A stretch of DNA of 64,000 nucleotides from Gammaproteobacteria bacterium (lineage in GTDB: Bacteria; Pseudomonadota; Gammaproteobacteria; JASBUN01): NCBI GenBank assembly GCA_030147845.1, contig JASBUN010000051.1, forward strand, positions 33,146-97,145, read 5' to 3'. This document shows, one piece after another, positions 17,972 through 38,458 of the stretch (positions within the stretch are counted from its first letter, which is position 1; every line of letters starts with the position of its first letter). The notes under the pieces were generated by a model. The model was not told the DNA's origin. It searched no databases and saw only the letters and a list, made by a program, of their open reading frames with translations. Made by a program: the position numbers and the translations under genes.

Positions 17972-18072
17972 TCGCGTATTACGCTTAACGCCGCTTTACT
18001 GCGCGTAAATTGCGCTTGTTGGCCGCGTTCCACCTTGTTGTTATGTCCTAGGCCGAGTCAGTCAGCATTTCC

Positions 18073-19466: not shown

Positions 19467-19769
19467 ATGAAAACGGATAAGCGCTATGTGGGGATAGATG
19501 ACGACGTTGACGGCGCGATGACCCACATCGGCACCATCATTCGCGACGCTTGGGTGTTCGGCCTTATCCCCGAGACCGAAACATGCAAGGACTGGGACCT
19601 GGCACGTATTCAGGCGTTATACGATCAGGTCGACGCGGCATGGGAACCGTACGGGCATTTAGTCAGCCTACTACCGGCCGAACTGCGTGAGCGCCATGCG
19701 CGGATATATGATGCGGCGGTGGCGCGCGCCCGAGGACTGGGCTGGTCGCCGAATATGGAGGAAGGCTAG
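19467..19769 (+). CDS. Hypothetical protein (100 aa).
   Basis: ATG at 19467 with AAGAG upstream. Composition is protein-like. No recognisable domain. Confidence 0.45.
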   Translation: MKTDKRYVGIDDDVDGAMTHIGTIIRDAWVFGLIPETETCKDWDLARIQALYDQVDAAWEPYGHLVSLLPAELRERHARIYDAAVARARGLGWSPNMEEG

Positions 19770-20109
19770 GCGCGCGCGGTATCGTGGTTAGTGGTTTCCG
19801 GCGCGCCATGGCTAAACCTTACGGCAGTCGAGGGCAGTCTGGTCCAGTGATCAGCTTGCCGGCGGCATAAGGTGCCGGACCTGCTTCGATGCGGCTGGTT
19901 GGAAGCCGGGTCCGAGTGTACGGATTCGATACCACGACCGCGGTTACATTCATCTCGATCGGTTGTTCCTGCTTGGCGTCTTCCGGGTGCGATACGATAG
20001 ACCGCGCACGCCGAAGCGCGCGCCACGGTTACGACGGTTGGCGCGGCGCTCATGTTTGTCGGTATGCCGCCGCTGTATGAGCCAAGTCGCACGTTGTTAG
20101 GGATGCGTT

Positions 20110-20261
20110 GATTAACAGGTTGTTGAAAAACCCTCGGGCGGCGCCATGCGGCGTTGGAAAACGGCTCAAAATGCTCATTTACTGATGTGTAAACTGCGCT
20201 TTCTCGCCGTGTTCCGCCTTGTCCGGCATCCACCGGAGACTTTTTCAACAACCTGTTAATC
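20110..20261. repeat. Perfect 21-bp inverted repeat (GATTAACAGGTTGTTGAAAAA) flanking a 110-bp spacer. It sits inside a ~120-bp imperfect direct repeat (about 20148-20236 and 20268-20360).
   Basis: Left arm 20110-20130 and right arm 20241-20261 are exact reverse complements. The direct-repeat copies share gcggcgttgg...tggaaa...tgtg(t/c)aaactgcgctt(t/c)ct(c/t)gccg...ttccgccttg. Confidence 0.6.
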
Positions 20262-20426
20262 CGCGGAGCGGCGTTGGCTATATTGGAAAGCGCGCGGAAT
20301 GCATATTTTCTGTGTGCAAACTGCGCTTCCTTGCCGCTTTGCGCCTTGCCTACGTCCGCATGATCGAATCAATCAGAGCTGCTTTAGCTTGTCGTTATTG
20401 TTGTGGGTTGTTACTGAGAGTTGAAA

Positions 20427-37194: not shown

Positions 37195-37361
37195 TTGTGC
37201 CGGGCGGATCGCTGCGCGGGTGGTGGTTTAGGAGAGTATGATCCGGGCTGTTCGCGTTACTCGATCCAGGCGATGATGGCGCGGCGAGAAGCGGCGAAAA
37301 AGCGCAGTTTACGCGCGTAAATGGACATTCGGCGCCGCCGTGCGGATTAATCAGTGCTTTC

Positions 37362-38117
37362 CTAGGCTTTGGAGGGTGCCGCCGCCTGTTGCTCGACGGC
37401 ATGCTGCGCCGCGCGCACCTGTTCGTCATCGGCTAAATAATAGTGCGTCATCACCCCCAGGCTGTCGTCGAATTCGTACACCAGCGGGATGCCGGTGGGG
37501 ATGTTCAGTTCCATGATGTCGCTGTCAGATATGTCGTCGAGCTTCTTCACCAACGCCCGTAACGAGTTGCCGTGAGCGACCACCAATAGGCGCTTACCTT
37601 CGCGCAAGCGCGGAAGAATGCACTGATCCCAGCATTCGAGCGCGCGTTTCATGGTGTCCTGTAGCGACTCCGTGTAGGGCAGCCGGGTTGGATCGATATG
37701 GGCGTAGCGCACATCATGATGTGGTATGCGCGCGTCGGTTGCGCTCATGGCTGGCGGTCGAACCGCGAAGCCGCGTCGCCACTGGTGTACTTGTTCCTCG
37801 CCGTAGTGTTCGGCGGTCTCGATTTTGTTCAGTCCTTGCAGCGCGCCGTAGTGGCGTTCGTTCAGACGCCAGTCCTTGTCTATCGGGATCCACATCAAGT
37901 CCATGACATCTTGCACGATCCATGACGTACGGATGGATCGTTTCAGCACGGACGTAACGGCGTGATCAAATTGATAGCCATCGCGTTTCAGCGCAGCCCC
38001 GGCGGCGCGCGCTTCCTTTACGCCGCGTGGCGACAGATCGACATCGGTCCAACCCGTGAATCGCTTCTCGCGGTTCCAGGTACTCTCGCCGTGACGAATA
38101 AAAACAACCTTGATCAT
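37362..38117 (-). CDS. gpmA: 2,3-bisphosphoglycerate-dependent phosphoglycerate mutase GpmA.
   Basis: RHGESxWN catalytic His motif. Colinear with dPGM proteins. ATG at 38117 with GGAG upstream. Confidence 0.9.
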   Translation of the reverse strand: MIKVVFIRHGESTWNREKRFTGWTDVDLSPRGVKEARAAGAALKRDGYQFDHAVTSVLKRSIRTSWIVQDVMDLMWIPIDKDWRLNERHYGALQGLNKIETAEHYGEEQVHQWRRGFAVRPPAMSATDARIPHHDVRYAHIDPTRLPYTESLQDTMKRALECWDQCILPRLREGKRLLVVAHGNSLRALVKKLDDISDSDIMELNIPTGIPLVYEFDDSLGVMTHYYLADDEQVRAAQHAVEQQAAAPSKA

Positions 38118-38458
38118 GGAGTTCTCCAGATTACTTAACGATTGCACATACGGCCGCCCGCCGCGGTCTTGGCGCTACCCATATGGTTAAACCATTAGCA
38201 TTAACTGTGCCATGAGTAAGTGGCGCGGCGGCGGCGCGAAAGCGCGGTAATCAGCGCAAGTCCGGCGCATAATACGCCGAATTGATGCGCCGGGGGAGGG
38301 CGCTTGCGACGTGGGCGCGTCCCATTATGTGCATGTCCGGGCTCGAGCTGGAACGATCGGCTACTAGTATAGTGCTTTTTGAATACACAATGTAGGCGGG
38401 GTTTCGGTGGCTGGGAGCTTACACGGTACTGGCGGCGCGTTAACGGAGTAATGGCGCT

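Follow-up and report, generated by a model that had tools for sequence, protein, structure and literature searches.

Two nested copies of a small non-coding element, very probably moved by an IS5-family transposase, upstream of an MFS transporter gene

The intergenic region and its repeats

The window, by which we mean the whole stretch of DNA that was analysed (64 kb), contains an intergenic spacer of 657 bp between a conserved open reading frame (ORF) of 100 aa and the gene of an MFS transporter. A gene for a LysR-type regulator is located 1 kb upstream, and nadA is found downstream. From the letters alone, the original prediction described a 21-bp perfect inverted repeat in this spacer, nested in an imperfect direct repeat, and proposed a miniature inverted-repeat element (MITE), a looping operator pair or a structured leader RNA as possible explanations. 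The inverted repeat was confirmed: GATTAACAGGTTGTTGAAAAA (21 nt, 20110-20130) has its exact reverse complement at 20241-20261, and none of 100 dinucleotide-preserving shuffles of the window yielded a 21-nt match, even when up to three mismatches were allowed. The arms reach 32 nt at 88% complementarity. The direct repeat was recovered as well, with a core of 36 nt (20186-20221 and 20313-20348) at 83% identity, its two occurrences pointing the same way approximately 127 bp apart. The motif TGTGYAAACTGCGC has two exact occurrences, and a third one with two mismatches (37302-37315) belongs to another relic of the same element.

The ORFs in the spacer had been regarded as compositional artefacts. 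Consistent with this, the 161-aa ORF on the minus strand (19766-20251) runs through the repeat and has no Pfam match. No tRNA or tmRNA gene was found in the window, a promoter scan of the region gave no sigma-70-like site, and a terminator scan of the region gave a single weak 5-bp stem, no more than was seen in shuffled sequences. A BLAST search with 19770-20100 against all fetched sequences returned no match.

A profile was built from 14 copies with the same core in other genomes (Thiotrichales, Methylococcaceae, Desulfobacterales, Desulfuromusa, Pontibacterium, Deferrimicrobiaceae and unclassified Gammaproteobacteria), the window's own copy being excluded. The full length of this profile aligns with 20112-20259 (E=5e-36). 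Altogether, four copies or relics of the family are present in the 64 kb of the window. The features are as follows:

19467-19769: conserved ORF of 100 aa, left border of the intergenic region
20097-20100, plus strand: TTAG, left target-site duplication of the old copy, direct repeat of 20384-20387
20101-20383, plus strand: old copy, interrupted by the young copy and defined by global alignment to it
20101-20115, plus strand: decayed left terminal repeat of the old copy, GGATGCGTTGATTAA, ending in the TTAA that was the target of the young copy
20112-20115, plus strand: TTAA, left target-site duplication of the young copy, duplicated at 20256-20259
20116-20255, plus strand: young, intact MITE of 140 bp, matched end to end by the profile, with an empty site in relatives
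20256-20259, plus strand: TTAA, right target-site duplication of the young copy
20260-20383, plus strand: remainder of the old copy, core 20297-20352, profile E=5e-6
20365-20383, plus strand: decayed right terminal repeat of the old copy, reverse complement AGCAGCTCTGATTGATTCG
20384-20387, plus strand: TTAG, right target-site duplication of the old copy
20427: ATG of the MFS transporter gene, right border of the intergenic region
37232-37361 (outer limits approximate), minus strand: relic 37k, third copy, decayed, core 37277-37335, profile E=7e-7
17995-18039, plus strand: relic 18k, fourth copy, strongly decayed, profile E=8e-4

The young copy is bounded by terminal inverted repeats (20116-20130 and 20241-20255) that match perfectly at 15 of 15 positions and read CAGGTTGTTGAAAAA. 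The 21-bp inverted repeat is therefore composite: it is this 15-bp terminal repeat plus the 4-bp palindromic duplication plus 2 bp of the target (GATTAATC), itself a palindrome, which supplies the GA...TC at the outer ends of the 21-mer. The copy has a conserved apical core (approximately 20163-20208) with a central hairpin (20176-20196), and it contains no transposase gene, 140 bp being too short to encode one. Measured from the duplication of the young copy, the transporter gene begins 168 bp further downstream; measured from that of the old copy, the distance is 40 bp.

When folded, the young element forms a long hairpin on either strand (z=-5.9 on the plus strand, z=-10.9 on the minus strand), and A5 and T5 tracts flank this hairpin on both strands. 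The strong plus-strand fold is what one would expect if the region were a structured 5' leader RNA, i.e. a riboswitch or an attenuator, of the transporter mRNA. However, the minus strand folds better, and the fold is that of the palindrome of a mobile element. Moreover, nothing in the window reached the gathering score of an Rfam 15 model, and at E ≤ 10 the only match between 19700 and 20500 was noise outside the element.

The direct repeat is explained by the second, older copy. Without the young element and one TTAA, the old copy measures 139 bp. Aligned with the young copy over its full length, it agrees at 101 of 140 positions (72% identity), with an alignment score of 99.5 compared to 24 ± 6 for shuffled sequences. 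Its two ends still match each other at 12 of 19 positions when counted by eye (13 of 25 in a script count). Its TTAG flanks, each of them 8 nt outside a TGATT(A/G)AT(C/T)CG inverted motif, are kept in related strains. The young copy interrupts the old one within its left end, and both point the same way; it is because of this nesting that an inverted repeat and a direct repeat are both present. The arrangement thus differs from the one first described, in which the inverted repeat was nested in a separate direct repeat.

Cores that lie 127 bp apart in the same orientation could also have arisen by local tandem duplication of approximately 127 bp. This has to be set against a second copy that possesses decayed terminal repeats and a TTAG/TTAG pair of its own, that has diverged from the first by 28%, and that stands alone in related strains. 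Of all the explanations weighed here, we consider tandem duplication the least credible.

Relic 37k sheds light on the site into which the young copy went. It shares TAGG.A.GC..TGATTAATCCGC with the old copy, and ..GC..TGATTAATC.GCGG is uninterrupted both in this relic and in four contigs from related strains. As relic 37k carries the uninterrupted string CTGATTAATCCGC, the TTAA target must have belonged to the mutated terminus of the old subfamily. The left flank of relic 37k, CTAG, overlaps the TAG stop codon of the ORF at 37362-38147 on the minus strand. Relic 18k was also found in one of the related strains (contig L149, 3717-3791) with E=9e-7. Both relics are located between convergent gene ends.

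Empty and filled alleles in related strains

The original prediction had suggested a comparison with orthologous intergenic regions. Relatives were found through the 90% cluster of the transporter protein, which has three other members, all of them from Logan assemblies. Four contigs of a related lineage (L149-L152, from SRR24974063, SRR24974064, SRR24974073 and SRR24974076) follow the local gene order for as much of it as they cover, and L149 and L150 span the whole neighbourhood. The transporter gene of L149 is 93.3% identical to that of the window at the nucleotide level. All four contigs contain a single TTAA and the old copy (E=3.6e-10), and the young element is absent. The empty site in the four assemblies reads ...GGGAAGCGCTGA-TTAA-TCTGCGG..., the related-lineage contigs read ...GTTGTTAGGGAAGCGCTGA-TTAA-TCTGCGGAAGCGGCG..., and the sequence of the empty junction is TGCGTTGATTAATCCGCGGAGC. 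In the related lineage the spacer is 492 bp long compared to 657 bp in the window, a difference that consists of 144 bp (element and duplication) and a 21-nt indel inside the old copy. This indel (TGGCTATATTGGAAAGCGCGC-like; 20278-20298 in the window, approximately 5880 in L149) separates the lineage of the window from the related one.

The filled allele was found in contigs from three further samples of the window's lineage (L001, L153 and L154). L001 encodes an identical transporter protein, and the transporter genes of L153 and L154 are 99.7% and 99.3% identical at the nucleotide level. The site therefore shows a presence/absence polymorphism at an orthologous position, with L149-L152 empty and L001, L153 and L154 filled. 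It should be noted that L153 and L154 start inside the right end of the young copy (approximately 20231-20232) and L001 starts at its last base (20255). Contig breaks at the young MITE in three independent Logan assemblies are expected of a multi-copy repeat, and equally of low coverage of the hairpin. The empty site was found only in the lineage that has diverged by 7%; a search of JGI metagenomes with the empty-site 22-mer derived from the window gave 0 matches.

The old copy and relic 18k are common to the related lineage and the young copy is absent from it, which places the events in the order old copies, lineage split, young insertion. The closest other species (L002; transporter 66% identical at the amino acid level) was also compared, and its 10-kb orthologous locus contained no match to the family. 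In this species, ORFs of 452 aa and 64 aa lie between the 100-aa gene and the transporter gene (1243-2818), where the window is non-coding throughout. The intergenic region of the window was considered as a remnant of a lost 452-aa gene; tblastn found no trace of this gene in the window, and the idea was dropped.

These alleles bear directly on the regulatory explanations. Two identical arms, 131 bp apart and upstream of a transporter gene, with a LysR-type gene 1 kb further upstream, look like an operator pair for a regulator that loops the DNA. But the related strains possess the same transporter and LysR genes and lack both arms, no trace of them was seen in 10 kb of the closest other species, and in the window the arms are flanked by a target duplication. 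The empty site in the related strains excludes a conserved regulatory site, and we regard an operator pair as very improbable. The structured leader RNA fares no better: it was looked for upstream of the orthologous transporter gene in the related strains, where it is absent, and it deserves as little credence as the operator pair. The suggestion of a MITE, by contrast, proved right, supported both by the empty site and by the wide distribution of the core of the 21-mer as an element terminus, which is described below.

Termini, target sites and IS5-family partners

One genome per species (596 Gb) was scanned for exact matches to the 18-mer TTAACAGGTTGTTGAAAA. At least 120 stretches in species-representative genomes from many phyla were found, compared to approximately 17 that we estimate to be expected by chance for an 18-mer in 596 Gb. 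Among the matches listed are Gamma-, Beta- and Alphaproteobacteria, Desulfobacterota, Spirochaetota and Nitrospirota, further Bacteroidota, Planctomycetota and Acidobacteriota, and others. Several genomes contain multiple copies, e.g. at least nine in Thiotrichales bin10046. An oriented pile-up of the matches revealed no conservation outside the TTAA; inside, the sequence continues as one of several distinct cores. Most of the matches are units of 80-250 bp bounded by inverted repeats, the commonest length being 125-155 bp, and the modal length of the MITE family is 140 bp. Later profile matches added copies in Marinobacterium stanieri and Nitrosomonas sp. Nm84. In conserved coding genes of Enterobacteriaceae (L018, L090, L121) and gut Clostridia (L025, L035, L037, L111), the 18-mer is attributed to chance.

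Among the matches listed, more than 100 small elements have the same termini at both ends. These lie beside unrelated genes in many phyla, which speaks against an operator tied to the transporter gene, and the copies of the family adjoin unrelated genes in both orientations, which speaks equally against a leader RNA of its mRNA. We found no description of this MITE family in the searchable literature, although this does not prove that it is undescribed.

The same 15-bp terminus also heads MITE cores that are unrelated to the one in the window. These include a 129-bp family in two metagenome-assembled genomes of Spirochaetota, a 151-bp family in Pseudomonadota CTOTU46466 with a compact AAAAAGGGCTCTCCTGCCCTTTTT hairpin just inside its end, a Desulfonatronovibrio family, and families with GTCATTCCCGCGAAAGCGGGAATCC-type cores. 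Four viral contigs (IMG/VR, L145-L148) contain the 18-mer. If they carry a MITE or an insertion sequence, they could point to the vehicle of spread across phyla.

As the 18-mer search pattern forced TTAA on one flank, the target-site rule was read from other copies. When the element is delimited as CAGG...CCTG, the 4-mers on its two flanks agree within a copy and vary from copy to copy. Secondary copies at the same loci have CTAA/CTAA, CTAG/CTAG, TTAG/TTAG and TTAT/TTAT flanks. A second set of copies was collected from JGI metagenomes with an internal pattern, so that their flanks are unbiased. In this set, 12 of 16 copies have identical 4-mers on both flanks, and YTAR is present on both sides in 14 of 16. 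Non-palindromic flank pairs are direct repeats, which identifies them as duplications and rules out an extension of the inverted repeat. Duplication of a 4-bp YTAR target is described for IS5 (PMC5009759).

Longer elements with the same termini and YTAR flanks were recovered at three loci (L100, L005 and L012). They are 1326-1352 bp long, and each encodes a transposase of 375 aa, which is interrupted in L012. The proteins of L100 and L005 contain DUF772 (PF05598) and DDE_Tnp_1 (PF01609) domains and match NCBIfam NF033581, 'IS5 family transposase', with E=1e-87. The ends of these candidate IS5-family partners read CAGGYTGTTGAAAAA. In annotated plasmids, the nearest relative that bears a name is ISAzs10 of Azospirillum (62% amino acid identity), with termini CAGGCCGCGGAAAAAGG and TTAG/TTAG flanks. 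The flanks of the full-length insertion sequences are all YTAR, but the two sides are unlike (TTAA/CTAG, TTAG/TTAA and TTAA/TTAG). There is no clean duplication here, which is a weak point of the argument, and the unlike flanks would fit later recombination between copies.

A different type of transposon has to be considered at this point. The termini start with TA-ACAGGTTG, which we take to resemble the end of Himar1, and TA is central in every flank, as it would be for a MITE of the IS630/Tc1-mariner type with a TA duplication. Yet whole 4-mers are repeated directly, including the non-palindromic TTAG, CTAA and TTAT, which a 2-bp duplication would not produce, and the full-length elements with these termini encode IS5-family transposases. 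An IS630/Tc1-mariner origin is consequently as hard to credit as the two regulatory explanations.

Taken together, the structure very probably consists of two nested copies of one non-coding MITE family of approximately 140 bp that is moved in trans by IS5-family enzymes. According to the mechanism that we propose, an IS5-family DDE transposase acting in trans would bind the 15-bp termini, CAGG(T/C)TGTTGAAAAA, cut the element out and paste it into a YTAR tetranucleotide, which would be duplicated when the staggered cut is repaired. The history itself is shown: the old copy inserted at a TTAG and then decayed, and mutation of its left terminus to ...GTTGATTAATCC created a TTAA. After the split from the lineage that is 7% diverged in the transporter gene, an intact second copy entered this TTAA in the same orientation and duplicated it. 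Since tblastn with the partner transposase detected no IS5-family transposase in the 64-kb window, we can only infer present-day mobility and the identity of the putative mobilising enzyme in this host.

The nested element is an ordinary kind of selfish DNA that happens to be unusually well documented at this locus, where filled and empty alleles, target duplication, nesting and older relics common to a sister lineage make it a textbook case. A candidate regulatory site or RNA is thereby removed. Being mobile DNA, the repeat should be masked ahead of any prediction of promoters, operators or small RNAs upstream of the transporter gene. The insertion can also be used as a marker dated to after approximately 7% nucleotide divergence. 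Beyond this locus, many MITE cores that are unrelated to each other share a single 15-bp terminus across many phyla, and one of these core families keeps a covarying hairpin with an invariant tip.

The conserved hairpin and comparison with known elements

In 15 copies from Gammaproteobacteria, Betaproteobacteria and Desulfobacterota, the apical 45 nt or so (GGCTCAAAATGCTCATTTAC...GTAAACTGCGCTTTTTCGCC) are nearly invariant, and the lower stem varies with compensatory changes. Across the 29 internal pairs, 87% of the cells are paired, compared to 34-47% when the partners are slid. Fifteen of the 29 pairs change on both sides, and none of 500 shuffles reached the observed score. For a MITE, the family is unusually conserved. 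Near-identical metagenome copies have a constant stem and a loop that differs in almost every copy; their stem is CATGTAC/GTACA, compared to CATTTAC/GTAAA in the window. Copies 75-90% identical to the young copy are carried by at least ten contigs of the JGI metagenome SR_TP_S13sol, and seven of the copies in this metagenome are 85-90% identical to it. Some metagenome copies (set L124-L144) have insertions of 15-25 nt at the tip of the hairpin.

With respect to their neighbours, approximately 12 of 33 full-length copies (loci L004-L144) end within a few bases of the end of an ORF, as judged from crude ORF calls. Where copies abut ORF ends, the duplicated YTAR overlaps the stop codon, as it does in relic 37k. 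No bias was seen in the orientation of the copies relative to neighbouring genes.

As an addition to the MITE explanation and not a replacement for it, the hairpin might be a selected, portable module, namely a bidirectional terminator, a stabiliser of RNA 3' ends or a site for a host factor, which insertion at stop codons would deliver to the ends of genes. The covariation across the 15 copies, with its near-invariant apical core above a covarying lower stem, the A5 and T5 tracts next to the hairpin on both strands, the copies adjoining ORF ends, and sister families that combine the same termini with a compact AAAAAGGGC...GCCCTTTTT hairpin all argue for such a module. On the other hand, the orientation of the copies is unbiased, G-U pairs favour neither strand clearly, and the terminator signal is weak, its 5-bp stem being no commoner than in shuffles. 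Furthermore, proximity to stop codons follows trivially from a YTAR target in a genome of 59% G+C, MITEs are commonly palindromic with halves that change in concert, for which no host function is required, and the copies in the window are decaying, which argues against selection acting on them. On balance, we consider a portable module rather unlikely.

A more far-reaching version, a 'cargo' MITE crossing phyla in which selection for the delivered function would preserve the invariant core and the covarying stem, appears somewhat less likely still, and we would place a selected function of the hairpin in general within the same doubtful range. Were there such a cargo, its most plausible function would be that of an orientation-independent terminator or 3'-end hairpin, put at stop codons by the YTAR target; alternatively, a conserved factor of the host or of transposition may bind it. 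The possibility that the core keeps the promoter of the transposase, with TGTGTAAACT as an extended -10 element, was rejected: the match at -35 is poor, and a similar sequence is found in only one of the three insertion sequences. If the conservation of the hairpin does reflect function, it would exemplify a mobile, orientation-independent structural module. A cargo MITE, if real, would be a mobile regulatory module common to Gammaproteobacteria, Betaproteobacteria and Desulfobacterota, and not junk.

Among known systems, the closest are insertion sequences of the IS5 group (ISAzs10-like, NF033581) and the MITEs that derive from such insertion sequences. They share with the MITE of the window the terminal repeat pattern CAGGnnGnnGAAAAA and the 4-bp YTAR duplication. 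Unlike the insertion sequences, the MITE is 140 bp long and has no coding capacity, and its palindromic core was sought inside the three full-length insertion sequences recovered (L100, L005 and L012) and is absent from them.

Correia elements (NEMIS/CREE) of Neisseria are approximately 100-150 bp long, have terminal inverted repeats, are abundant between genes, and duplicate a TA-containing target. When transcribed, they fold into long hairpins and can affect the expression of neighbouring genes. The MITE of the window resembles them in its small size, terminal inverted repeats and long hairpin. However, the sequences are unrelated, and the duplication of Correia elements is TA (2 bp). To our knowledge, Correia elements are restricted to one genus and have no known partner transposase, whereas for the MITE described here a partner family can be identified, and the family spans phyla.

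Like REP and BIME sequences, which are associated with RAYT (Y1) transposases, the MITE is a short palindromic repeat between genes, often at gene ends. REP units, however, measure 20-40 nt and have neither such terminal inverted repeats nor a target-site duplication. The unit described here is 140 bp long and has both, and its identity as a REP or BIME was rejected for this reason.
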